64,000 bases of DNA, taken from positions 24,570 to 88,569 of the forward strand of contig JAHDES010000017.1 in the NCBI GenBank assembly GCA_020628645.1, written 5' to 3'. Position numbers and translations under genes: made by a program. The DNA is from Saprospiraceae bacterium (GTDB lineage: Bacteria > Bacteroidota > Bacteroidia > Chitinophagales > Saprospiraceae). How positions within the stretch are numbered: position 1 is the stretch's first letter; each line of letters starts with the position of its first letter. The notes under the pieces were generated by a model that saw only the letters and a program-made list of their open reading frames with translations, had not been told where the DNA came from and made no database searches. Below are positions 27,450 to 40,579 of the stretch, one piece after another.

Positions 27450-27620
27450 TTTTACTAGTATCGTCTAAACCATTACAAGACAAGTCCTATTTATTTACTG
27501 TATCTTTGTCTTTAAGAGATACTACACTTTTTTGTAAAATCCTATTTTCTTCGATCAAGCAAGAAGAAATCACGATTTTTGAAAAAGCACAAACAAAAAA
27601 CATGTTCTCATTCAAAAAAC

Positions 27621-27700
27621 TCTAAGAGCGAAGCGATCTAAAGTCTAATCGTCTAAAAACGAAGTGGTCTAAAAAAGCTTAGCGATCTAAAAATAAAAAA
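27621..27700. repeat. Intergenic TCTAA-repeat tract containing the 21-nt core GCGAAGCGATCTAAAGTCTAA. Copy A lies upstream of the YgiQ gene.
   Basis: Five TCTAA copies at 8-14-nt spacing, plus sub-repeats GAAGCGATCTAAA / GAAGTGGTCTAAAA / TAGCGATCTAAAA. The core occupies 27628-27648. Confidence 0.45.
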
Positions 27701-27702
27701 AC

Positions 27703-29625
27703 ATGTTTGACGACCTACGACCTTTATCCGATTGGTTGCCGATTACAAAGAAAGAAGTGGAGGCACGAGGCTGGGAAGAATTGGATGTAATTCTGATTTC
27801 AGGGGATGCCTATGTAGATCACCCTGCCTTTGGTACGGCTGTAATTGGGCGTATATTAGAAGATGAAGGATTGAAAATAGCGATTGTACCACAACCCAAC
27901 TGGAAAGACGATCTTCGTGATTTTAAAAAACTGGGTCAACCCAAATACTTCTTTGGCATCACATCTGGATGTATGGATCCAATGGTCAATCATTATACTG
28001 CTGGAAAAAGAAAACGTTCTACGGATGCCTACACTCCTGGGGGCAAGTCAGGTTTCCGACCCGATTATGCAACGAATGTTTATTCTAAAATATTAAAACA
28101 GCTTTATCCAGAGACCCCTATTTTGATTGGTGGAATTGAGGCTTCGCTCCGTCGCGTAACGCATTATGATTATTGGGAAGATGAATTATTCCCCAATATC
28201 TTACAAATGAGTGGAGCCGATATGTTGGTGTATGGAATGGGGGAACTTCCTTTGCGGGAAATTTTACGCTTACTAAAAAAAGGAGTGCCTTTTAATTCCT
28301 TAAAAACAATTCCACAAACAGCCGTTTTACTAGATCAAGAAGAAAAAATACCTGTCAATAAAAATTGGGAAGACCTTTGGCTCAATTCTCACGAAAAATG
28401 TTTGCGAGATAAACGTTCTTTCGCTCAAAATTTTAAGCACATTGAGCAAGAATCAAACAAAGTACAAGCCAGACGTTTACTTCAAAAAACGGGCGACTAC
28501 AATTTAGTAGTCAATCCGCCATACCCACCCATGTCAGAGAACGAAATTGACCGTTCGTTTGATTTACCTTATACTCGTCTTCCGCATCCAAAATATAAAA
28601 AACGCGGCTCGATTCCTGCTTATGAAATGATTCGTTTCTCGGTCAATATGCATCGCGGTTGTTTTGGAGGCTGTAGCTTTTGTACCATTTCAGCGCATCA
28701 AGGAAAATTTATAGCCAGTCGTTCAGAAGAGTCCATCTTAAAAGAAGTGGATAAAGTAACAAAAATGCCTGACTTCAAAGGCTATATCAGCGACTTAGGT
28801 GGACCATCTGCGAATATGTATAAAATGAAAGGTAAGGTACAATCTATTTGTGATCGTTGTGTCGCACCTTCCTGTATTCACCCAGTCGTTTGTAGTAATC
28901 TAGATACGAGCCACAAACCAATGACTGAACTTTATAAAAAAGTAGATGCACATCCAGAAGTAAAAAAGGCATTTGTGGGGAGCGGTATCCGTTATGATTT
29001 ATTAGTTGATTCGTACAACAAGAAAAATGATGGTAGTCTAGATGAATACATGGAACAAGTCGTTACTTGTCATGTCAGCGGTCGCTTAAAAGTAGCACCT
29101 GAACATACCTCTGATAATACACTCAAAGTAATGCGAAAGCCATCTTTCAAGCATTTCCATGAGTTCAAAAAGAAATATGACGCCATTAATAAAAAACATG
29201 GATTGAATCAGCCATTAATTCCTTATTTTATATCGAGTCACCCTGGTTCGCAAGCAGAAGACATGGCAAATCTCGCTGCTGAAACGAAAGATATGGGCTT
29301 CAAGCTCGAGCAAGTCCAAGACTTTACGCCTACTCCCATGACGGTGGCTACTATTATTTATTATACAGGATTACATCCATATACACTTCGGCCAATTTAC
29401 ACTGCCAAATCTCCCAAAGAGAAAAAGCAACAACACATGTTCTTCTTTTGGCATAAAAAAGAAAATTATCAACAAATCAGAGACAAACTCACCAGCATTG
29501 GTCGAGAAGATCTAATTGAAAAACTCATTGGCGACAAAAAACGCCATCAAAAACAATCATTCATCAAAGACAAACGTAAATCAAGACAAAACGGCAACAA
29601 AAAGAAATTTCGTCGAAGAAAATAA
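27703..29625 (+). CDS. ygiQ: YgiQ-family (UPF0313) radical SAM protein
   Basis: 640 aa. N-terminal YgiQ-specific domain. Radical-SAM cysteine motif CFGGCSFCTISAHQG. Basic Lys/Arg-rich C-terminal tail, typical of this family. Confidence 0.88.
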   Translation: MFDDLRPLSDWLPITKKEVEARGWEELDVILISGDAYVDHPAFGTAVIGRILEDEGLKIAIVPQPNWKDDLRDFKKLGQPKYFFGITSGCMDPMVNHYTAGKRKRSTDAYTPGGKSGFRPDYATNVYSKILKQLYPETPILIGGIEASLRRVTHYDYWEDELFPNILQMSGADMLVYGMGELPLREILRLLKKGVPFNSLKTIPQTAVLLDQEEKIPVNKNWEDLWLNSHEKCLRDKRSFAQNFKHIEQESNKVQARRLLQKTGDYNLVVNPPYPPMSENEIDRSFDLPYTRLPHPKYKKRGSIPAYEMIRFSVNMHRGCFGGCSFCTISAHQGKFIASRSEESILKEVDKVTKMPDFKGYISDLGGPSANMYKMKGKVQSICDRCVAPSCIHPVVCSNLDTSHKPMTELYKKVDAHPEVKKAFVGSGIRYDLLVDSYNKKNDGSLDEYMEQVVTCHVSGRLKVAPEHTSDNTLKVMRKPSFKHFHEFKKKYDAINKKHGLNQPLIPYFISSHPGSQAEDMANLAAETKDMGFKLEQVQDFTPTPMTVATIIYYTGLHPYTLRPIYTAKSPKEKKQQHMFFFWHKKENYQQIRDKLTSIGREDLIEKLIGDKKRHQKQSFIKDKRKSRQNGNKKKFRRRK

Positions 29626-29630
29626 AACGT

Positions 29631-29725
29631 CACATAGTCTAACAGCGAAGCGATCTCGCAATCCACGAAGTGGATGATCTCTCAACGAAGTGGTCTCACA
29701 TCTCACAGCCGAGTAATCTCATGCC
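29631..29725. repeat. Degenerate copy B of the CGAAG(C/T)G(A/G)TCT-type repeat tract, downstream of ygiQ
   Basis: Three direct ~20-nt units: CGAAGCGATCTCGCAATCCA / CGAAGTGGATGATCTCTCAA / CGAAGTGGTCTCACATCTCACAG. Confidence 0.4.
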
Positions 29726-29933
29726 CAATCCTCTTTTTTTAAGAAAATCTTAACAGTTTATCGAATATTCCAAGAAGCTAACCGAAATAAATCGTTTTTT
29801 ATCGACAAAAAGAGCAATTTAGTAGTGTAATTAAGCTAGAAAACAAAAAAAAATACAGGAAAATGTAAAACTAGAAATCTAACGATTAATATAAAGCTAG
29901 AAAACAGAATAAAGCAGAAGACACCCTGTATTT

Positions 29934-29966
29934 GTGCATGGACAAAATTTGTTTTTGTCCATGCAC
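29934..29966. promoter_or_regulatory. Perfect 14-bp-arm palindrome (GTGCATGGACAAAA-TTTGT-TTTTGTCCATGCAC). Candidate operator or structured RNA element.
   Basis: Seen directly in the sequence. It lies about 210 bp upstream of the YqiJ-like gene. No flanking T-run, so it is unlikely to be a terminator. Confidence 0.4.
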
Positions 29967-30175
29967 CCCTAACCAAATCGCCCAATTTATACTAGCATTA
30001 AAGTATAAAGCTATCAACCAATGAAAACGGGTGGCCACCATTTTTATGGAAAAAAATATGTCTTGAAATATTATGACTATATTTAGTACTTTAAAAGCAA
30101 ATTTAAGTCAAGAACGAAGCTATTAAAATCATTTCTTTCTTGTTCAATATTTATTAATTTCTTAACCCAAAGCCT

Positions 30176-30820
30176 ATGTATGAGTTATTGCAAGTTGCTG
30201 TAAGTCCAGTCAATATCGTGTATACGACCCTACTCATTCTGGTACTTTTGTATTGGTGTACCGTCTTGATTGGTCTACTGGACTTTAGTTCATTTGACCT
30301 TGATCTAGACCTCGATGCTGATGTAGATGTGGACGCTGACATTGACGTGGATGCGGATGCCGATATAGATAGCGGTGGGTTCATTATCGGAGCATTACAG
30401 TTTTTCCACTTTGGTAAAATGCCCTTCATGATCATCATGAGTTTTGTAATTCTCTTCGCTTGGGTCTTGAATATCTATGCTAATTTCTATCTTGGAAAAG
30501 GGGAAATAGGCTTTGCCTTAGCGATGGCGATTCCTCTTTTATTTGTGAGTTTGATCTTAACGAAGATTATTACCATGCCTTTATTACCTGTTTTTAAAGG
30601 TATGAATGAGGGAGAAGAAAAAATTGATATGATTGGATTGACTTGTAAAGTTTTATCGAATATTACACCAAATAAATTAGGGCAAGGAGAACTAACCTAC
30701 AATCATAGCGTATTGAAAATAAATATTATAGCTGAGGAATCTACACCTCAAATAAATAGAAATACTGAAGCGATTATCATTGACCAAACAGATAAATATT
30801 ATATTGTAAAACCAATTTAA
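30176..30820 (+). CDS. YqiJ-like (DUF1449 / NfeD-like) inner-membrane protein with an acidic (Asp-X)n repeat
   Basis: About four TM helices plus a C-terminal beta-rich, OB-fold-like soluble tail. An N-proximal loop reads DLDLDLDADVDVDADIDVDADADID. It lies immediately upstream of a flotillin gene, as in yqiJ-yqiK. Confidence 0.65.
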   Translation: MYELLQVAVSPVNIVYTTLLILVLLYWCTVLIGLLDFSSFDLDLDLDADVDVDADIDVDADADIDSGGFIIGALQFFHFGKMPFMIIMSFVILFAWVLNIYANFYLGKGEIGFALAMAIPLLFVSLILTKIITMPLLPVFKGMNEGEEKIDMIGLTCKVLSNITPNKLGQGELTYNHSVLKINIIAEESTPQINRNTEAIIIDQTDKYYIVKPI

Positions 30821-30923
30821 TAAATTCGATAGGGCTAGTTTCCTAACTAGACCATAATTTATAACGCGAGATTCCTATCTCGCAAAAAATACACTCTTTA
30901 CAACTAAAAAAAATCAACTGATT

Positions 30924-33077
30924 ATGACAGAACCTATTTTTTTAATTGGATTAGGCCCTTTACTCATCGCAAGTGTAATAATTGCTGTTATTCTTCTTTT
31001 GGCTGTAATTTTAGCCGCTACGTGGTATAATAAAGTACCTCAAGGACAAGCCTTAGTCCGAACTGGTCGTGGTGGATCAAAAGTAGCTTATGATAAAGGA
31101 ATGTTTGTAGTTCCTATCATACACATGGTAGAAAGAATGGATTTATCTGTAAAAACGATAGAAATTACGCGTTCAAAAGAAGATGGATTGGTATGTAAAG
31201 ACAATCTTAGAGCGGATATTAAAGTAGTATTTTTTGTACGAGTCAATAAGAAAGATGATGATATTATAAACGTAGCTCAAACAATTGGTTGTGCTAGAGC
31301 ATCTGATCCTCAAACTTTACGAAATCTATTTGAGGCAAAATTTTCAGAAGCCTTAAAAACAGTAGGGAAACGTTTTGATTTTGTAGAACTATACGATTCA
31401 CGAAAAGAGTTTAAAGATGAAATTATTGCAACGATTGGTACTGATTTGAATGGATATGTCGTAGATGATGCTGCAATTGATTACTTAGAACAAACTCCTT
31501 TAGAGTTTTTAAGTGAAAATAATATCCTTGACTCAGAAGGTATCAAAAAAATTACCGAATTAACCGCTGCTCAAAAGATCAAAGCGAATTTCCACCGTAG
31601 AGAAGAAGAAAAAACGATTAAAGAACAAAATGTAGAAGCGCAAGAAGCCATCTTGGAGTATGAGCGTCAATTAGCAGAAAAGGTAGCCCGTCAAAAACGG
31701 GAGATTGCCAATATCGAAGCACGTGAAGAAGCGGAAATTGCTAAAATCAACGAAGAAGAACGACTTCGTTCAGAAATGGTTCGTATTCGTACAGAAGAAG
31801 AATTACAAATTGCGGAAGAAAATAAATTGCGTCAAGTGATTGTCGCAGCTAAAAATAAAGAACGTACAGAAGCAGTCGAAAATGAGCGTGTAGATAAAGA
31901 ACGATTACTTGAACTCACCGAAAAAGAGAAAATTGTTACACTCGCAGAAATTGAAAAAGAAAGAGCGATAGAATTAGAGCGCAAGAATATTCAGGATGTG
32001 ATCAAAGATCGGATCATGGTTGAGAAAAAAGTAGTCGAAGAAGAAGAGAAAATTAAAGATACCAAAGAATTGGCTACTGCTGAACGTGCGCGCCAAGTAG
32101 CGATTATCAAAGCCGAAGAGGAAGGTCAAGCAACGATTATTCTTCATCAAAAAACCGCAGAAGCGGAAAAATTAGCGGCAGAAATTCAAGCACAGAAAAT
32201 CAATATTGATGCAGAAGCTGAAATGAATGCAGCATCGAAAGAAGCGGAAGCTCGTAAGATTCGTGCAGAAGCAAAAGCAGCGGAAGAAGCAACCATCGGA
32301 TTATCGGAAGCACAAGTCATTGAAGCGAAAGCACAGGCGAAAGAGCGCGAAGGGACACTCGAAGCTGTTGTACTTGAAAAGAAAGCCATCGCCGAAGCTA
32401 AAGGTATCGAAGTAAAAGCAGAAGCTTTGAAAAAGCAAGGATTGGCAGAAGCTGAAATTCTTCAAGAAAAAGGAATCGCAGAAGCAAAAGCAACTTCTGA
32501 ACTAGGGTCAGCGGAAGCAAAAGTACTCGAAGAAAAATTAGTTGCCGAAGCTAAAGGCGTAGAGATGAAAGCAAATGCCATGAAGAAATTGGATGGCGTA
32601 GGCAAAGAACATGAAGAGTTCAAATTGAAATTGGAGAAAGAGAAGGAAGTCGAATTAGCGAATATTGATATTCAAGCGAAAATCGCTGAAGCACAAGCTC
32701 TCGTCTTGGCAGAGGCATTCAAGCAAGCGAATATTGACATCGTAGGCGGCGAACAAACTTTTGTCGATAACATCATGAAAGCCATCAATCGCGGTAAATC
32801 AGTCGATCGAATGCTAGACAATAGTAACCATTTGACGGATATCAAAAATGGCTTTATGAATGGCAATGGTGGAGGAGGCTTATTCTCCAAAATCAAGCAT
32901 ATCGCAAATCAGTCAGGAATTACCACCAACGATTTGAAAAATTTAACGATCTCAGCCCTTTTACTCAAATTATACAATGAAACTGCCGACGATGGACAAA
33001 AAGACGTAATTAACAGCTTAATGAAATCTGTCAAAAAATTGCGTATCGGAGAACAACTCGCAGAAGGATTATTGTAA
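30924..33077 (+). CDS. Flotillin-like SPFH/Band-7 protein (YqiK type) with a long Ala/Glu/Lys-rich coiled-coil repeat region
   Basis: N-terminal TM helix. SPFH domain (VRTGRGGSKVAYDKGMFVVPIIHMVERMDLSVKTIEI...). About 350 aa of AEAKx-type heptad-like repeats follow. Confidence 0.85.
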   Translation: MTEPIFLIGLGPLLIASVIIAVILLLAVILAATWYNKVPQGQALVRTGRGGSKVAYDKGMFVVPIIHMVERMDLSVKTIEITRSKEDGLVCKDNLRADIKVVFFVRVNKKDDDIINVAQTIGCARASDPQTLRNLFEAKFSEALKTVGKRFDFVELYDSRKEFKDEIIATIGTDLNGYVVDDAAIDYLEQTPLEFLSENNILDSEGIKKITELTAAQKIKANFHRREEEKTIKEQNVEAQEAILEYERQLAEKVARQKREIANIEAREEAEIAKINEEERLRSEMVRIRTEEELQIAEENKLRQVIVAAKNKERTEAVENERVDKERLLELTEKEKIVTLAEIEKERAIELERKNIQDVIKDRIMVEKKVVEEEEKIKDTKELATAERARQVAIIKAEEEGQATIILHQKTAEAEKLAAEIQAQKINIDAEAEMNAASKEAEARKIRAEAKAAEEATIGLSEAQVIEAKAQAKEREGTLEAVVLEKKAIAEAKGIEVKAEALKKQGLAEAEILQEKGIAEAKATSELGSAEAKVLEEKLVAEAKGVEMKANAMKKLDGVGKEHEEFKLKLEKEKEVELANIDIQAKIAEAQALVLAEAFKQANIDIVGGEQTFVDNIMKAINRGKSVDRMLDNSNHLTDIKNGFMNGNGGGGLFSKIKHIANQSGITTNDLKNLTISALLLKLYNETADDGQKDVINSLMKSVKKLRIGEQLAEGLL

Positions 33078-33169
33078 GCAATAGCCTTTAAAAACGCTGT
33101 GGAATAGGATATCACTATTTCACAGCCTTACAAAGAGACACACGGAGTTTATTAGATATAAGGAAAAAA

Positions 33170-33273
33170 CATCTAATCTAGAAGTCCTACGTCCAATAGT
33201 CCTACGTCAAGAAGGTCTAAATATCTAAAAGCGAAGCGATTCAAAGTCTAACAATCTAAAATCTAGTATCTAA
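33170..33273. repeat. Copy C of the intergenic repeat tract, with core GCGAAGCGATTCAAAGTCTAA. It lies immediately upstream of the 1620-aa gene.
   Basis: Core at 33231-33251, identical to copy A at 20 of 21 positions. AGTCCTACGTC occurs twice (33182-33207). There are several TCTAA units. The tract ends at the start codon. Confidence 0.45.
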
Positions 33274-36200
33274 ATGTCTGAAATAAAACTAGAAGGCGGC
33301 ACCTATGAAATCATCCGTAATCGACTTTCCAAGCAAGCGGAGGAATTGCGCGCACGACTAGGGCAACTTAATGTAGCTCGAAAAGAAGTCTTCGGTGCAA
33401 TAGAAACACAGTTGATTGCCAATGATCGGATCAACACTCAAAACTACTGTACGGCACGAGATATTACCTCGATTGGCGACTACTGTCTTTTTGGCTATAA
33501 TGTGCAGATTGGATTGCGATCGGGCATCAAACTGGAAGACGTTTTTAGTGTTTATCAGTTTCAAAATAATAGTTTTCAAGAAGCAAAAATTTCCTTGCTG
33601 ACAGATGAAAAATTTGAGACGGATTTTCAGAATTTATATCGCTATTACAAGAATGCGTATTTTGCTCGTTTTGTAAGCATCGGATCGTATTTATACATGG
33701 TTTTTCATTTGAATAAAGATTCTGAAGATTTCAAATCATTCAAATGGTTAGTAACAGATGATGGACTCAAATATGTAGGCAATCGTTTCGACCATGAGGT
33801 GGTTTTTCCTACCCAACATGAATTTAAATGGCAACGTGCACACCGCGATTTTCACCGTTCTGGAACGCATCCACATGTCTCTATTATGGATCGAGTATTT
33901 GTGGAAACTGTAGGTGGTGATTTAACCATTAAAATAGAAGACAATACCGAAGATGGTTTAGGAATTTATCGAGAAGAAGTAGAATACAAAGAGCAAACCC
34001 TCGATGATGCAGAATATTTATATGCAGATTTGGGCAATTTGATTGTTCTAAAAATCCGACCCTATCAAGAAGAATTTCGCTATTTTGTATTTAATGAAAA
34101 AATGCAAGAGGTACAGCGTATTGATACCCTCGAAGATTCAGGTGTATTGCTCCCCGATCAGCATGGACTCATTTTTGCGAATGGCTATTACCTCCAAATG
34201 GGAGAATACAAGATATTCGATCCTGATATGCGAAATAAGCTTTTTAAGAAGCGAATCGTATCCCCGAATGGAGAAGATTATTTGTATGTTTTTTACAATA
34301 ATCAAAAAGGCACCTATGTCTTAATGCATTATAATGTCATTGAGCAAACCATTCATACGCCTATCATTTGTCATGGATTTACGCATTTTCCAAATGGAGA
34401 ATTATGCTATTTCCGTGCGGAAGATGAGCCGACTAAACATCATGTCGTACAAATTTGGCAAACACCTTTTGTCGCAGGAGATGTTGCGCCATCCAACCAA
34501 ACCGATAGTTATTTATACAAAGTAGGGAACAAAGATATTGTCAAAGCAATGGCAGAATCACAGGAGATTTTGACCTTGGTTGGAAAAGAAGATACCTATT
34601 CTGGCTTATACATTGACTTGGCTAAAAAATGTACGGATGTACTCGATTCATATTATTGGATTGATAAAGAAGGAGCTTTTCTCATCAATCAACCCATACA
34701 AGAAATAAAAGCGACGGCAACTTCTGCCATTGAAGAATATGAGAAGAAAGTTCGTATCCAAAAAAATACAGCGGCAGAAATCAAACGCGTACAAACTAAT
34801 GCCGAAGAACTTTTTGAAGCGATCCGAAAAAACACTTTTGATGCAGTTGATCTTTTTGTAGAAAAACTAGCGGCTATTCGTGTGCTACGAGGAGAAATTA
34901 TTTCCTTAAAAGAATTGCGCTATACGGATCTGCCTTTGATTGAACAATTAGAAACTTCAGCTACGGAGTACAATGACCAATTGTCCAATGATTGCGTTCG
35001 CTTTCTTTTAGATAAAGATGCTTTAGTGCCATACATTAAGAAAATTGAGGAGCAAGCAAAGCAATTAGAAAGTATTGAAACAGCGAAACAAGGACAAGAA
35101 GTTGAAGAAACTATCGACCAAACAGGAAAAGAACTAGAGTTGTTGATTGACATTGTAAGTAATCTCAAAATTGATGATGCAACTCAAACCACACGCATTA
35201 TTGATAATATTTCTGCCATGTACGCCCAACTGAATCAAGTTAAAGCAGCAGTCAAGAAGAAGCAGAAAGAATTGATGGGTACGGAAGCCATTGCGGAATT
35301 CAATGCACAACTCAAATTACTCGATCAAGGGATTATCAACTATCTTGATCTGGCTGATAGTACACAAAAATGCGATGAGTACCTTACTAAACTAATGGTA
35401 CAACTCGAAGAGTTAGAAGGAAAATTTGCCGAATTTGATGAGTTTATTTTGACGATTACAGAGAAGCGCGAGGAAATTTATGCGGCTTTTGAAAGTCGTA
35501 AAAACACCTTGATTGAATCTCGAAATAATCGTACGTCTGCCCTTCAATCTGCGGCAGATCGTATTTTAAATGGGATTCAAAACAGAGCTAAATCCTTTAA
35601 AGAAGTCAACGAAATTAATGGCTTTTTTGCATCTGATTTGATGATTGATAAAGTGCGTGATATTGTCCAGCAATTAATTGATCTGGAGGATAGCAATAAA
35701 GCGGGGATGGTTCAATCGCGTTTAAAAAGCTTAAAAGAAGAAGCCGTTCGCCAATTGCGAGATCGCCAAGATTTATTGGTGGATGGACAAAATATTATTC
35801 AATTTGGTCGCCATAAATTTGCAGTGAATGTTCAGCCGCTTGATTTAACCGTTGTTAATGAAGGTGGACAAATGAAATTCCATTTGACGGGAACAGATTT
35901 TTATGAGCCGATTACCAATACCGATTTTTTATCTACAAAATCAGTTTGGAATCAACGTTTACCTTCAGAGAATGAAAGTGTCTATCGTTCGGAATTTTTA
36001 GCCTATCAACTGTTTAAAAGTAATCCTCAATCACAGTTATTACAAGCGAATGGACAATTGTTAACACTCGTTCAAAAAGAAGCGACTCTTCGTTATCAAG
36101 AGGGGTATACAAAAGGCATTCACGATGAAGATGCGGCAGATATTCTTCGCGCATTAGTGCAATTATCGGATAAAATTGATCTCTTACGTTTCACACCTGA

Positions 36201-38136
36201 TGTACGTGCCTGCGCGAATATTTGGTGGCACCGTTTTCTATCGGAAGAAGATAAAAATTTGTTTAGCAATCAACTGAAAAGTGCAGGAGTGATCTTGCAA
36301 GTTTTCCCAGAAACACATGAGTTTGATTATTTAATTGAAGATTTAGAACTAGTTGTTAATAGCTTCTTAGAAGAGCAAACCATTTTCTCACAAGAAGAGG
36401 TGAATCGTAGAAAAATTGCCGAATACATTTTTCAAGAATTATCAAAAGGTGATCAGTTTATCATCTCGAAGGAAGCCGCTGAACTCTATACCGAATTTAA
36501 AAACTACCTCAAAAAACGAAAATCACAAGGGGCATTTGATACCTCCACTTTTGAATTAAGAGATAATCCTGCTGAGCAGTTCCAATTAATGCGTAAGTGG
36601 GTACATGCCTTCATTGAGCAATTGAAAGTCGATCATTATTTGTCTTTTATCAATGAAGCGGCGAGTTTGCTGTTTTTGGATAATTTCAATAAGAAACAAG
36701 TCATTCAAACGAAGACTTCTGTGGAGGTGGGTAAACTACATGGTACGCATAAAAGTTTTGAGGAAATCTATCATTTAGATTATACCGCTTTTATGAAGAA
36801 AATGGAGGCCTACGAAACCGAAACGCTTCCTGCTTATCAGCAATTTGTACAACAAAAGAAAGATTTAGCGATCCAATTCAGAAAAGAATTACGCTTGGAT
36901 GAATTTAAGCCGCGTGTACTCAGTTCGTTTGTACGAAATAAATTGATTGACCAAGTTTATTTACCAATTATTGGAGATAATTTAGCCAAACAAATGGGAA
37001 CGGCTGGTGAAAATACCCGTACGGATTTGATGGGCATGTTGCTCTTGATTTCGCCTCCAGGTTATGGTAAAACAACCTTGATGGAATACATTGCCAATCA
37101 ATTGGGCTTGATCTTTATGAAAATCAATGGGCCAGCCATCGGTCATCAAGTGACTTCGCTCGATCCTGCGGATGCGCCCAATATGGCAGCCCGTCAGGAA
37201 GTACAAAAATTGAATCTGTCCTTGGAGATGGGCAATAATGTGATGTTGTATGTCGATGATATTCAGCATTGTCACCCTGAGTTTTTACAGAAATTTATCT
37301 CCCTTTGTGATGCCCAACGTAAGATTGAAGGGGTGTATAAAGGCGAAAGTAAAACATACGATTTAAAAGGTAAACGCTTTTGTGTCGTCATGGCTGGAAA
37401 TCCATACACCGAAAGTGGCGATAAATTCCAGATACCTGATATGTTGGCGAATCGTGCTGATATTTATAATCTAGGAGATATTATTGGTGACACCGAAACG
37501 GTTTTCAAATTGAGTTATATTGAAAATGCGATGACTTCCAATCCTGTTTTACAAAAATTGTCGAATAAGAGTTGGAAAGATGTCTATACGGTGCTGAAAA
37601 TGGCAGAAACAGGCAGTCGTGAAGGACTAGAATTTGAAGCGAATCATAGTCCAGAAGAACTCAATGAATATGTAAGTATTCTCGAAAAAATGTTGGTGGT
37701 ACGAGATGTTGTACTCAAAGTGAATCAAGAATATATTCGCTCTGCGGCGATGGCAGAAGATTATCGTACTGAGCCTGCATTCAAGTTACAAGGCTCGTAT
37801 CGAAATATGAATAAGTTAGCGGAAAAACTCGTTCCCATCATGAACGAACAGGAATTGGATACCTTGATCCTTTCCCATTATGAAGGTGAATCACAAACCC
37901 TAACGAATGGAGCAGAAGCCAATTTTCTAAAACTAAAAGAACTTTTAGACGGTCAAAGCGAAGAAGAACAAAACCGTTGGACAGCTATCAAAAAGACCTT
38001 CAATAAAAACAAAATCTTCCGTAATACGGATGAAAATAATCCGATGAGTCAAGTGCTTGCCCAATTAGCTGCTTTTACGGATGGAATTGATGGTATTAAA
38101 GATGTATTGGAGCAGGCAGTGAAAGGGAAAGGATAG
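33274..38136 (+). CDS. Giant (1620-aa) cytoplasmic protein with a C-terminal AAA+ ATPase module (MoxR/AAA_5-like). The N-terminal ~1200 aa have no recognisable domain.
   Basis: Walker A LLISPPGYGKTTLMEY (aa 1263-1268; nt 37060-37077). Walker B MLYVDDIQH (nt ~37243-37263). Sensor-1-like VVMAGNPYTE. No signal peptide and no TM segment. The region around aa 430-820 is E/K/L/Q-rich and looks like coiled-coil. Confidence 0.7.
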   Translation: MSEIKLEGGTYEIIRNRLSKQAEELRARLGQLNVARKEVFGAIETQLIANDRINTQNYCTARDITSIGDYCLFGYNVQIGLRSGIKLEDVFSVYQFQNNSFQEAKISLLTDEKFETDFQNLYRYYKNAYFARFVSIGSYLYMVFHLNKDSEDFKSFKWLVTDDGLKYVGNRFDHEVVFPTQHEFKWQRAHRDFHRSGTHPHVSIMDRVFVETVGGDLTIKIEDNTEDGLGIYREEVEYKEQTLDDAEYLYADLGNLIVLKIRPYQEEFRYFVFNEKMQEVQRIDTLEDSGVLLPDQHGLIFANGYYLQMGEYKIFDPDMRNKLFKKRIVSPNGEDYLYVFYNNQKGTYVLMHYNVIEQTIHTPIICHGFTHFPNGELCYFRAEDEPTKHHVVQIWQTPFVAGDVAPSNQTDSYLYKVGNKDIVKAMAESQEILTLVGKEDTYSGLYIDLAKKCTDVLDSYYWIDKEGAFLINQPIQEIKATATSAIEEYEKKVRIQKNTAAEIKRVQTNAEELFEAIRKNTFDAVDLFVEKLAAIRVLRGEIISLKELRYTDLPLIEQLETSATEYNDQLSNDCVRFLLDKDALVPYIKKIEEQAKQLESIETAKQGQEVEETIDQTGKELELLIDIVSNLKIDDATQTTRIIDNISAMYAQLNQVKAAVKKKQKELMGTEAIAEFNAQLKLLDQGIINYLDLADSTQKCDEYLTKLMVQLEELEGKFAEFDEFILTITEKREEIYAAFESRKNTLIESRNNRTSALQSAADRILNGIQNRAKSFKEVNEINGFFASDLMIDKVRDIVQQLIDLEDSNKAGMVQSRLKSLKEEAVRQLRDRQDLLVDGQNIIQFGRHKFAVNVQPLDLTVVNEGGQMKFHLTGTDFYEPITNTDFLSTKSVWNQRLPSENESVYRSEFLAYQLFKSNPQSQLLQANGQLLTLVQKEATLRYQEGYTKGIHDEDAADILRALVQLSDKIDLLRFTPDVRACANIWWHRFLSEEDKNLFSNQLKSAGVILQVFPETHEFDYLIEDLELVVNSFLEEQTIFSQEEVNRRKIAEYIFQELSKGDQFIISKEAAELYTEFKNYLKKRKSQGAFDTSTFELRDNPAEQFQLMRKWVHAFIEQLKVDHYLSFINEAASLLFLDNFNKKQVIQTKTSVEVGKLHGTHKSFEEIYHLDYTAFMKKMEAYETETLPAYQQFVQQKKDLAIQFRKELRLDEFKPRVLSSFVRNKLIDQVYLPIIGDNLAKQMGTAGENTRTDLMGMLLLISPPGYGKTTLMEYIANQLGLIFMKINGPAIGHQVTSLDPADAPNMAARQEVQKLNLSLEMGNNVMLYVDDIQHCHPEFLQKFISLCDAQRKIEGVYKGESKTYDLKGKRFCVVMAGNPYTESGDKFQIPDMLANRADIYNLGDIIGDTETVFKLSYIENAMTSNPVLQKLSNKSWKDVYTVLKMAETGSREGLEFEANHSPEELNEYVSILEKMLVVRDVVLKVNQEYIRSAAMAEDYRTEPAFKLQGSYRNMNKLAEKLVPIMNEQELDTLILSHYEGESQTLTNGAEANFLKLKELLDGQSEEEQNRWTAIKKTFNKNKIFRNTDENNPMSQVLAQLAAFTDGIDGIKDVLEQAVKGKG

Positions 38137-38852: not shown

Positions 38853-39554
38853 TTACTTCCTTGTCTTCTCCCAAAAACTCTCCTGATACGTCTTCGAAAT
38901 AGGTAAATATCGCTCTTTAATCACGACTCGATTACGCTCGATAAAGTCAATTTTAGATAAAGCCACAATATAGGAACGATGGATACGGACGAACTGCTCG
39001 GAGAGTAAAACTTCTTCAAAAAAGCGCATATTTTCTAAGGTTAGGGTTTTTCCAGCAGGAGTATGGACTGCCACATAATCGCCTAAGGCTTCTAGATAAA
39101 GGATGTCATCAAAATTCAAACGAATAGTTTTGTAGCCACTTTTGATGAATATGTAGGAAGGAGGATTAGATATTATGTTTTCTTCTTTTGAAATTCGTTT
39201 TTCAACGTGTTTTTTAATTTTTTGCACGCACAATAAAAAACGTTCAAAACTGATCGGTTTTAATAAATAATCAATGGCATCCATTTCATAACTATCTACG
39301 GCATATTGATCGTAAGCAGTAGTAAATACCACTTCATACTTATTTTGGGTAAGTTTAAGGAGCTGTATACCCGTCAATTCTGGCATTTGAATGTCTAAAA
39401 ACAGTAAATCGACTTCCTGTTTATTTAAAAAATGGAAGGCTTCTATAGGATTAGTAAAGGAATCGATCAACTCCAAATCGGGGGACTGTCGGACATAATC
39501 TGCCAATAATTGAATGGCTAAGGGTTCATCATCTATAATAAGACATCGAATCAT
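38853..39554 (-). CDS. LytTR-family two-component response regulator
   Basis: Receiver domain (LIIDDEPLA...FLDIQMPELTG) plus a C-terminal LytTR DNA-binding domain. Confidence 0.85.
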   Translation of the reverse strand: MIRCLIIDDEPLAIQLLADYVRQSPDLELIDSFTNPIEAFHFLNKQEVDLLFLDIQMPELTGIQLLKLTQNKYEVVFTTAYDQYAVDSYEMDAIDYLLKPISFERFLLCVQKIKKHVEKRISKEENIISNPPSYIFIKSGYKTIRLNFDDILYLEALGDYVAVHTPAGKTLTLENMRFFEEVLLSEQFVRIHRSYIVALSKIDFIERNRVVIKERYLPISKTYQESFWEKTRK

Positions 39555-40579
39555 CGTTGATCGTTTAAAGGAATTGATAAATGTACACGAAAGAAAGCCG
39601 CTTTTTCTTCGATGCGTAATTTATGTTGATCGCCATACATCAAGTTCAGTCTTTTTTTGATATTATTCAAACCGATTCCTCCTACTTTATCTTTTTGTTT
39701 GGCGGCAACAGCATTGCTTATTTCAATTGTTAATTCATTTTCTTTGGCTTGAATAGTCATCTCGATAAGCTGTTTTATGTCTCCATGTTTAAAGGCGTTT
39801 TCAACAAAAGGAAATAAAATAAAAGGTGGAATTTGAACATCCGCGGTAGCTCCTTTTTGTTGTAAATGAAATTGAATCGGATAATCAAAACGCATTCGTT
39901 CCAACTCCACAAATCGTTGGATGGTCACGATTTCTTCTTGAAGTGGAATATATTCCTTTTTGCCATACAAACTAGATCGTAAAATCGCGCTTAATTTTTC
40001 AATAGCGGGAAGTGCATGCTCCGATTTTTGGTATACCAAACTATAGATATTATTCAAGGTGTTAAACAAAAAATGCGGATTAAATTGAGAACGTAAAAAA
40101 GATAATTGTGTTTGTTGGTTTTCAATAATCAAGGCATGACGCTGCTGTTCTTTAAAATTAGAATATTGAATAAAAAAGAAAATAAATCCCACACTAAAAT
40201 GGACGAACGCAAAATAGATGTTGTTTAAAACGTATTGAATTCCCACAATATCATCTCTAAAATTATCAAAGCCAAATAGCTGTAAAAAGATGATTTCTTC
40301 AAGAGCATATCGAATGCAGCAAACAAGAATTAATACGATAATAATGCCTATTACCAATTCCTTTTTTCGTTTGGGATAAAAGTGAAATGAAACTAAATAG
40401 GCGCCTAAGCTAAATAGAAAAAAACAGATAAGCGAGGACAAATTAAGCATCCCTGAAGAAAAAATTCCCCAATCCAATAAAGCATTCCAACTTTGATCTA
40501 AAGCGACATTCCTTAAATCATAGAATACCAAATACACGAGTGTATGCCAAAGGAATAATTGTCCAATTTTCTGTTGCAT
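39551..40579 (-). CDS. LytS/YehU-type sensor histidine kinase
   Basis: Multi-TM N-terminus; His-kinase region (LRSQFNPHFLFNTLNNI) and an HATPase_c-like C-terminus. Its end overlaps the regulator gene by 4 bp (ATGA). Confidence 0.8.
   Translation of the reverse strand: MQQKIGQLFLWHTLVYLVFYDLRNVALDQSWNALLDWGIFSSGMLNLSSLICFFLFSLGAYLVSFHFYPKRKKELVIGIIIVLILVCCIRYALEEIIFLQLFGFDNFRDDIVGIQYVLNNIYFAFVHFSVGFIFFFIQYSNFKEQQRHALIIENQQTQLSFLRSQFNPHFLFNTLNNIYSLVYQKSEHALPAIEKLSAILRSSLYGKKEYIPLQEEIVTIQRFVELERMRFDYPIQFHLQQKGATADVQIPPFILFPFVENAFKHGDIKQLIEMTIQAKENELTIEISNAVAAKQKDKVGGIGLNNIKKRLNLMYGDQHKLRIEEKAAFFRVHLSIPLNDQR

Follow-up and report, generated by a model that had tools for sequence, protein, structure and literature searches.

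Which genes act together at a locus where a radical-SAM enzyme, a flotillin pair and a very large ATPase are encoded in a row on one strand? The question is raised by 64,000 nucleotides (nt) of DNA from a Saprospiraceae bacterium (GenBank assembly GCA_020628645.1, contig JAHDES010000017.1, positions 24,570 to 88,569 of the forward strand), here called the window, in which we examined the block of open reading frames (ORFs) at 27703-38136 on the + strand. An original prediction, made from the sequence, had proposed that ygiQ, a yqiJ-like gene, a flotillin gene and the gene for a protein of 1620 amino acids (aa), hereafter the giant protein, form an undescribed system under common regulation through a 21-nt element. 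Here we report that the functional unit is very probably an operon of three genes, leading from the yqiJ-like gene through a YqiK-type flotillin gene to the giant gene, whose product combines a propeller, coiled coils and an AAA+ module. ygiQ is a chance neighbour of this cassette, and the 21-nt element is a copy of a widespread dispersed intergenic repeat without specificity for these genes. An operon described by Ravi et al. (mSystems 2024, PMC11237479; preprint 2020) is present here in its abbreviated three-gene form, and the locus is a new member of an already described family.

Conservation and domain make-up of the cassette

Relatives of the giant protein were sought in one genome per GTDB species, yielding 80 loci with up to 10 kb of flanking sequence each; every locus was searched for the other three window proteins, and all ORFs were clustered. 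Upstream sequence exceeded 2.5 kb at 67 loci. At 64 of these the gene directly 5' of the giant gene, in the same orientation, encodes a flotillin orthologue (median gap 160 bp), and a YqiJ-like gene preceded flotillin in 58 of 65 loci. These loci belong to Bacteroidota, Planctomycetota, Verrucomicrobiota, Desulfobacterota, Clostridia and Kiritimatiellota, and the pairing of an SPFH/flotillin gene with a 'DNA repair ATPase' is also found on annotated plasmids (Pseudomonas fluorescens pQBR103; Streptomyces). YgiQ was found at none of the 80 loci when each was searched with the window protein. The association originally proposed thus survives for flotillin, the YqiJ-like protein and the giant protein, which co-occur as a conserved unit, and fails for YgiQ.

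The four co-oriented ORFs of the window encode 640, 214, 717 and 1620 aa and, as predicted, have no credible reverse gene between them; the reverse ORFs in the block are shadow ORFs within coding regions only. Within the cassette the spacers are 103 bp (yqiJ-like to flotillin) and 196 bp (flotillin to giant gene). The genes and the main domains of the giant protein are as follows, in window coordinates.

27703-29625, + strand: ygiQ, radical-SAM protein, 640 aa (TIGR03904); a neighbour, outside the cassette
30176-30820, + strand: YqiJ/YuaF-type (NfeD2-like) membrane protein, 214 aa (hhalign against E. coli YqiJ)
30924-33077, + strand: YqiK-type flotillin (SPFH), 717 aa (hhalign against E. coli YqiK; AlphaFold2 (AF2) model and Foldseek)
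33274-38136, + strand: giant soluble AAA+ protein, 1620 aa, NCBI name 'DNA repair ATPase' (Pfam, AF2, Foldseek)
33343-34656, + strand: DUF3686 region, a beta-propeller, aa 24-461 of the giant protein (Pfam PF12458, AF2, Foldseek)
37009-37473, + strand: AAA+ module, aa ~1246-1400 of the giant protein (Pfam AAA, invariant motifs)

The two small members were correctly named in the original prediction, and their identity comes from orthologue profiles. Taken alone, the YqiJ-like protein of the window falls under the cutoff of Pfam YqiJ_N (17.8 vs 23 bits), a family matched by 7 of 20 orthologues; the profile built from these 20 matches E. coli YqiJ with an hhalign probability of 96% (E 1.9e-9). 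It has three transmembrane (TM)-like segments, an acidic D-x repeat loop at aa ~36-65 and a C-terminal beta domain. The loop follows the first TM segment (aa 36-65; 30281-30370) as the acidic alternating repeat DFSSFDLDLDLDADVDVDADIDVDADADID, the consensus of the orthologues here being D-x-D-x repeats, and may be cation-binding or length-variable.

The flotillin comprises an N-terminal TM helix (aa 4-34), an SPFH domain (~42-190), a coiled coil (204-601) and a C-terminal helical region. By itself it matches nothing in Pfam or NCBIfam, Band_7 (PF01145) and Flot (PF15975) giving no match even at E 10, and a search of PDB sequences with the 717 aa reaches QmcA at best (E 0.03); the orthologue profile likewise finds only QmcA (E 0.0025). 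Across 25 orthologues, Band_7 is matched by three and Flot by none. The profile of these 25 nevertheless aligns with E. coli YqiK at an hhalign E of 1.5e-43, with 34% identity over 382 columns. In the AF2 model, built like our other models with database homologues, a TM helix and an alpha/beta domain are followed by ~400 residues of long helices, and Foldseek matches this model to cryo-electron microscopy chains of flotillin, prohibitin, HflK/C, stomatin, erlin and QmcA (9bq2, the flotillin complex, 9o9z, 7vhq, 9z7u and 8z5g; E 7e-9 to 8e-7). The comparison with YqiK and the fold search together settle its identity as a YqiK-type flotillin.

In the giant protein, only the C-terminal ~200 aa had been thought recognisable, a view that is now outdated. 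Pfam places DUF3686 (PF12458) at aa 24-461 (E 1.3e-181) and DUF7902 at aa 582-666, and the AAA+ module does not lie at the extreme C-terminus. The protein runs from an N-terminal helix through a beta-propeller, a coiled-coil/helical stalk and a helical middle domain to one AAA+ module and a C-terminal helical region, and no TM-like segment is predicted in it. The AF2 model of aa 1-1200 (mean pLDDT, the per-residue confidence score, 78.9) has the N-terminal helix, beta strands at 46-396, long helices at 413-833, a small beta unit and a helical domain; by Foldseek the beta domain resembles seven-bladed propellers of the WD40, kelch and clathrin-terminal-domain types, DCAF1 and KLHDC3 among them, at E 7e-6 or weaker. 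Solved relatives were found only for ~40 residues around the P-loop. DUF3686 itself comprises 730 representative clusters at 50% identity, whose full-length members are mostly ~1600-1900 aa long.

The AAA+ module matches Pfam AAA (28.9 bits vs a cutoff of 21.2) and carries Walker A GYGKT at aa 1263-1267, Walker B VDD at 1327-1329, sensor-1 N1376 and a candidate arginine finger, R1394. In an alignment of 14 homologues G1263-T1268, D1328/D1329, N1376 and R1394 are invariant. Walker B has the form hhhVDD (37252-37260) instead of the usual DE.

The cassette is often longer elsewhere. In 22-25 Bacteroidota loci a divergent gene combining HTH_XRE (a helix-turn-helix domain, HTH) with Peptidase_S24 is followed by CesT_Tir_1, PspA/IM30, YqiJ, flotillin and giant genes. 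The divergent gene, of the LexA/CI-like, self-cleaving type, lies ~3.5-6 kb 5' of the giant gene and was recorded at the following loci.

L008, L012, L016, L022, L024-L027, L030, L032, L034, L035: divergent XRE-HTH with S24
L041-L043, L046, L053, L061, L070, L076, L079, L080: divergent XRE-HTH with S24

Because such a self-cleaving-type gene stands divergent to it, the arrangement suggests that the extended operon is derepressed by a cleavage-type stress signal. A different extension is seen on pQBR103 of P. fluorescens SBW25 (L204, 85.1-97.6 kb of the record), where a co-directional run of PspA, a rhomboid protease, DUF2491, DUF350, DUF1190, glutathionylspermidine synthase and a hypothetical protein in the yqiJ position leads to SPFH and the giant ATPase. 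This run ties the cassette to polyamine-type PspA operons.

Much of this organization is on record, contrary to the original view that the association was undescribed. Ravi et al. described an operon in which a CesT/Tir-PspA dyad is joined by a three-TM YqiJ/YuaF protein, a Band-7/flotillin protein and a beta-propeller/coiled-coil AAA+ protein, and explicitly mentioned abbreviated YqiJ-flotillin-AAA+ operons lacking the dyad; their Table S3 entry for Dokdonia donghaensis (ANH61663.1) gives the same gene string as our full-form loci, and their description is purely computational (PMC11237479). The last three genes agree with those of the window in order, orientation and domain architectures, whereas the CesT/Tir and PspA genes of the full form, and the divergent HTH-S24 gene, are not found there.

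The ygiQ neighbour and the intergenic repeat arrays

The first gene of the row is a genuine ygiQ, as had been predicted (TIGR03904 E 1.6e-241, 803 bits vs a cutoff of 462; Pfam Radical_SAM_N and DUF3362 also match). In the closest relative fetched, L082 (GCA_020627565.1; 2652-9611), whose giant protein is 76% identical, ygiQ adjoins the cassette but is inverted with respect to the window and so lies on the opposite strand. A glycosyltransferase gene (GT4/GT1) has come to stand between the flotillin and giant genes there, and the surroundings of the cassette are thus being reshuffled even among members of one family. The next relative, L083 (giant protein 71% identical), has no ygiQ nearby. The 550-bp spacer between ygiQ and the yqiJ-like gene contains a perfect 14-bp hairpin (TGCATGGACAAAA...TTTTGTCCATGCA; -22 kcal/mol, z -6.9) with no U-tract, which may be a terminator, a transcription-unit boundary or some other palindromic element. 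Since YgiQ is missing from all 80 loci, lies on the opposite strand in L082 and is set apart by a 550-bp spacer with a hairpin, the unit comprises three genes and not four.

The proposed regulatory link concerned short repeats at the following places.

27622-27690, + strand: array A, tandem repeat of TCTAA and mini-hairpins, holding the 21-nt motif at 27628-27648; ends 13 nt 5' of the ygiQ ATG
29638-29722, + strand: array B, degenerate, with TCTCA-type spacers; begins 13 nt past the ygiQ stop codon
29934-29966, + strand: the perfect 14-bp hairpin of the ygiQ-yqiJ spacer (fold energy)
33172-33273, + strand: array C, TCTAA-type heptamer/octamer units and one GCGAAGC hairpin unit, with the motif at 33231-33251; abuts the giant-gene ATG

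The two motif copies, GCGAAGCGATCTAAAGTCTAA in array A and GCGAAGCGATTCAAAGTCTAA in array C, stand 5' of the first and last genes as predicted and are identical at 19 of 21 positions, not 20. Their match is non-random, as 0 of 100 shuffles gave any match, and 27561-27741 and 33151-33321 are the only tracts of the 64 kb in which TCTAA reaches a density of at least four per 100 bp. The degenerate copy predicted between ygiQ and the flotillin pair is present as array B, with a third occurrence of GCGAAGCGAT at 29645, just past the ygiQ stop codon. The arrays are built of ~16-nt units, TCTAA-RAR-CGAAGYGR, array C consisting mostly of 7-8-nt TCTAA-type units, and have no stable global fold (z ~0).

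The spread of the motif was assessed by a metagenome scan with the unit pattern TCTAANNNCGAAGYGRTCTAA, which returned at least 120 stretches on contigs of 29-57% G+C. Many of the stretches listed are clear arrays (e.g., TCTAACAGCGAAGCGGTCTAACAGCGCAGCGGTCC...). The family unit is ~16 nt long and reads TCTAAC-A-[2-5 bp stem, GNA loop]-GG, reminiscent of the d(GCGAAGC) mini-hairpin. Neighbouring units in the arrays, which the search pattern had not chosen, include compensatory variants (caGCgaaGCgg, caACgcaGTgg, caGTgcaACgg, caATgcaATgg) and longer stems (GTCCgaaGGAC, GCACCtttaGGTGC). Over 24 distinct units, standard pairs make up 97.9% of the cells at the two central pairs, and 13 changes are double. 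Covariation at this level was reached in none of 500 shuffles, and the signal collapses when the register is slid.

Among the matches listed, 107 of 121 arrays are intergenic, and their orientation is mixed: 24 of these 107 lie within 100 nt 5' of a same-strand ORF start, and 42 have the 3' end of an ORF on the other strand no more than 100 nt away. The genes 3' of ten arrays, all unrelated housekeeping genes, encode an S13 carboxypeptidase, a RecD-like helicase, a phosphoglucomutase/phosphomannomutase-family enzyme, LMW-PTP (a low-molecular-weight protein tyrosine phosphatase), an SSF symporter, Dus, an FAA hydrolase, a His_biosynth-family protein, GpsA and a Na/Pi cotransporter. No array stands 5' of the giant gene in 83 related loci, including L082, L083, L001 and L054; TCTAA-rich spots in L024, L043 and L082 were considered as arrays and rejected as chance clusters in coding sequence. 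No Rfam family matches the arrays of the window or of the array-rich loci. Of 2.9 million viral contigs only one matched, so the repeat does not belong to phages.

TAACTGA heptamers are known 5' of start codons in Beggiatoaceae, Cyanobacteria and some Bacteroidetes (MacGregor 2015, PMC4679880). The window arrays are likewise short intergenic direct repeats, REP-like (resembling repetitive extragenic palindromes) and often abutting start codons, and their family occurs in Bacteroidota-like contigs. Unlike the heptamers, its unit is ~16 nt long and has a covarying stem. A literature search found no description of the sequence, and these arrays of TCTAA and GNA-loop mini-hairpins, met with during the motif test, may be an undescribed, widespread Bacteroidota-type class of intergenic repeat, new in its own right.

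Two readings would give the arrays a regulatory meaning. In one, ygiQ, yqiJ, flotillin and giant genes form a single system co-regulated through the shared 21-nt/TCTAA element; the common strand, the non-random motif pair and the confinement of TCTAA tracts to these places in 64 kb are in its favour, as is the presence of ygiQ beside the cassette in L082, but the evidence from the 80 loci, the inverted gene and split cassette of L082, the missing arrays of related loci and the hairpin-bearing spacer make it extremely improbable. Since the motif belongs to a widespread repeat that lies by unrelated genes in either orientation and is absent in relatives, it provides no evidence of co-regulation. 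The original prediction had itself named a common repeat unrelated to these genes as refuting evidence, and by the metagenome scan the regulatory link fails on those terms. In the other reading the arrays would be a post-transcriptional leader, for example an unstructured A/U-rich translation enhancer or a platform for an RNA-binding protein, tuning ygiQ and the giant gene alike in this species with no shared pathway implied. Arrays A and C are in the sense orientation and end 0-13 nt before a start codon, many family members sit just 5' of an ATG, the TAACTGA heptamers offer a published analogue, and the lack of a stable fold would suit an open leader. Against this, the opposite-oriented arrays near gene 3' ends are the more numerous, so that a REP-like DNA repeat fits better than a dedicated leader; Rfam offers no match, the position of the arrays is not conserved in relatives, and we regard a leader function as unlikely. 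The dispersed intergenic repeat remains our reading of the arrays.

A proposed role at the membrane

What might the three-gene operon do? The best overall explanation, which we consider probable, is that it encodes an envelope-stress module at the cytoplasmic face of the membrane, in which the ATPase remodels flotillin assemblies, PspA assemblies or both. Of the roles first suggested (stress, defence or envelope remodelling), the most plausible lies in envelope stress or remodelling, since many Bacteroidota operons also encode PspA and a CesT-like chaperone (CesT/Tir), and PspA joins the cassette on pQBR103. The N-terminus of the flotillin has no positive charges and a K/R-rich stretch follows its TM helix; by the positive-inside rule the SPFH domain and coiled coil would thus be cytoplasmic and within reach of the giant protein.

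A more specific mechanism is offered tentatively. The flotillin would be anchored by its single N-terminal TM helix and, with its YqiJ/NfeD-type partner, would assemble into a large ring or dome on the inner membrane face, like other SPFH proteins, which form large rings and cages of the kind retrieved by the fold search. The soluble giant protein may dock on this scaffold through its propeller, its stalk or both, and its single AAA+ module, presumably as a hexamer, would use ATP to assemble, remodel or disassemble it; alternatively, the ATPase may act on PspA (ESCRT-III-like) polymers or on client proteins held there during envelope stress. An SPFH-PspA connection is reported for Bacillus subtilis, where the SPFH protein YdjI is needed to bring PspA to the membrane (PMC8581546).

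Several points weigh against the envelope-stress module. Three loci (L020, L028 and L029) have the giant gene and at least 7.6 kb of upstream sequence with no detectable flotillin or YqiJ-like gene, and may be orphan copies or have diverged partners, and E. coli has yqiJK without a gene for the giant ATPase; the pairing of flotillin and giant protein is therefore not obligatory in either direction. By tblastn, no PspA, CesT or HTH-S24 homologue was found in the 64-kb window or in Saprospiraceae relatives, so for the window itself the link to PspA is indirect. The flotillin model is of only moderate confidence (mean pLDDT 64). The sequence gives the AAA+ module no clear clade, AAA_5 falling just under its cutoff (21.4 vs 22 bits over aa 1256-1379) and Walker B reading DD rather than DE. 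The NCBI name 'DNA repair ATPase' points elsewhere, and literature searches (DUF3686; 'DNA repair ATPase' with flotillin) found no experiments on any member of the cassette.

Two other functions have to be weighed. Defence systems often contain large NTPases that bear propeller or repeat sensor domains, and the cassette could be an anti-phage or conflict system in which infection is sensed by the flotillin scaffold and the giant NTPase, and the two then disrupt the membrane or bring about abortive infection. A patchy distribution across phyla, occasional carriage on plasmids and the divergent XRE-HTH and S24 repressor of the extended form, a prophage-like control module, would fit. PADLOC, however, gave no significant match, its best (mad8, TRIP13; E ~0.008-0.01) having no significant matched stretch; only 13 plasmid records carry a homologue, several of them really chromosomes or chromids; and the conserved partners are envelope-stress genes (PspA and CesT/Tir, or DUF350 and glutathionylspermidine synthase on pQBR103) and not nucleases or toxins, with no recurrent defence genes among the top conserved flanking clusters of the 80 loci. 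Defence, one of the roles originally suggested, is thus unsupported, and we think it quite unlikely. The giant protein might instead be what its name says, a DNA-repair ATPase whose DNA-processing activity the flotillin would tether to the membrane. Pfam labels DUF3686 'ATPase involved in DNA repair', in keeping with the NCBI family name, the Walker A region is weakly similar to RuvB, the Walker B stretch VDDIQH resembles by eye the DD motifs of the DnaA type, and a LexA-like S24 repressor stands beside the extended operon. Yet Pfam and NCBIfam detect no DNA-binding or nuclease domain in it, similarity to RuvB and p97 is confined to a ~40-residue stretch at the P-loop, the genes invariably beside it encode membrane proteins, and no literature behind the name was found. 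A literal role in DNA repair is accordingly very improbable, and an envelope-stress module remains the reading we prefer.

The part played by bacterial flotillins in organising membrane microdomains has been studied widely. To our knowledge, no energy-consuming partner that builds or recycles their assemblies has been described, and we know of no Vps4-like remodeller for PspA, the bacterial ESCRT-III homologue. The giant protein, linked to a YqiK-type flotillin and its NfeD-like partner at 64 of 67 loci from at least six phyla, with plasmid records adding three more, is a concrete candidate for such a role. That it is a dedicated ATP-driven machine, assembling or dismantling flotillin cages or docked PspA/ESCRT-III polymers, is a possibility we put forward only tentatively; if true, its function in bacteria would parallel that of Vps4 or of FtsH paired with HflK/C, and flotillin microdomains would gain an energy-dependent turnover cycle. 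The window itself adds little beyond another member of a family already flagged by comparative genomics, and the analysis corrects two attractive but wrong inferences, the YgiQ link and the shared regulatory motif.

Known systems and neighbouring features

The first two genes of the cassette have well-known equivalents in E. coli yqiJ-yqiK and B. subtilis yuaF-floT (NfeD2-SPFH2; Hinderhofer et al. 2009, PMC2636767), which show the same order with the NfeD-like gene first; YqiJ and YqiK of E. coli are homologues of the two window proteins. In E. coli, sibD/ibsD and not a giant AAA+ gene lies 3' of yqiJK. The window flotillin is longer than YqiK (717 vs 553 aa), and only aa 28-434 align, the C-terminal part being distinct.

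Coupling of an SPFH scaffold to an AAA+ ATPase is likewise seen in HflK/C-FtsH, where HflK/C cages enclose the AAA+ protease FtsH (PDB 7wi3, 9cz2). Both structures are among the fold matches of the flotillin model, whose near neighbours thus include the HflK/C chains of 7vhq, 7wi3 and 9cz2. FtsH, however, is a membrane-anchored protease and HflK/C faces the periplasm, while the giant protein has neither a TM segment nor a protease domain and its AAA+ module is not FtsH-like; the likeness is one of logic by analogy, not of membership. The comparison with ESCRT-III/Vps4 and PspA/Vipp1 is prompted by the PspA gene that shares an operon with the cassette in many genomes, and a Vps4-like role in polymer remodelling has been suggested for the AAA+ ATPase by Ravi et al. 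(PMC11237479). In contrast to Vps4, no MIT domain and no Vps4-type AAA module were detected in the giant protein, and PspA is absent from the window.

A third likeness is to MoxR. Among the Pfam matches AAA_5 extends over the largest part of the ATPase core, JGI labels some homologues of the giant protein 'MoxR-like ATPase', and the stretch AGNPYTESGDKFQIPDMLANRA resembles by eye the sensor-1/arginine-finger region of MoxR proteins. Unlike in MoxR, ~1240 residues precede the AAA+ module, Walker B has DD, and no VWA partner appears among the conserved ORF clusters around the giant gene in the 80 loci.

A scan for sigma-70 promoters was uninformative (36 sites vs 37.6 expected). Motifs of the Bacteroidota type, TAnnTTTG, occur only 5' of ygiQ (27501) and 3' of the giant gene, with none in the gap between flotillin and giant genes. 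Convergent with the giant gene, a LytTR response regulator and a His_kinase/GHKL sensor are encoded at 38853-40579 on the - strand. A homologous LytTR regulator lies near the cassette in only 7 of 81 loci (the 80 related loci and the window), and the pair is therefore probably a coincidental neighbour.

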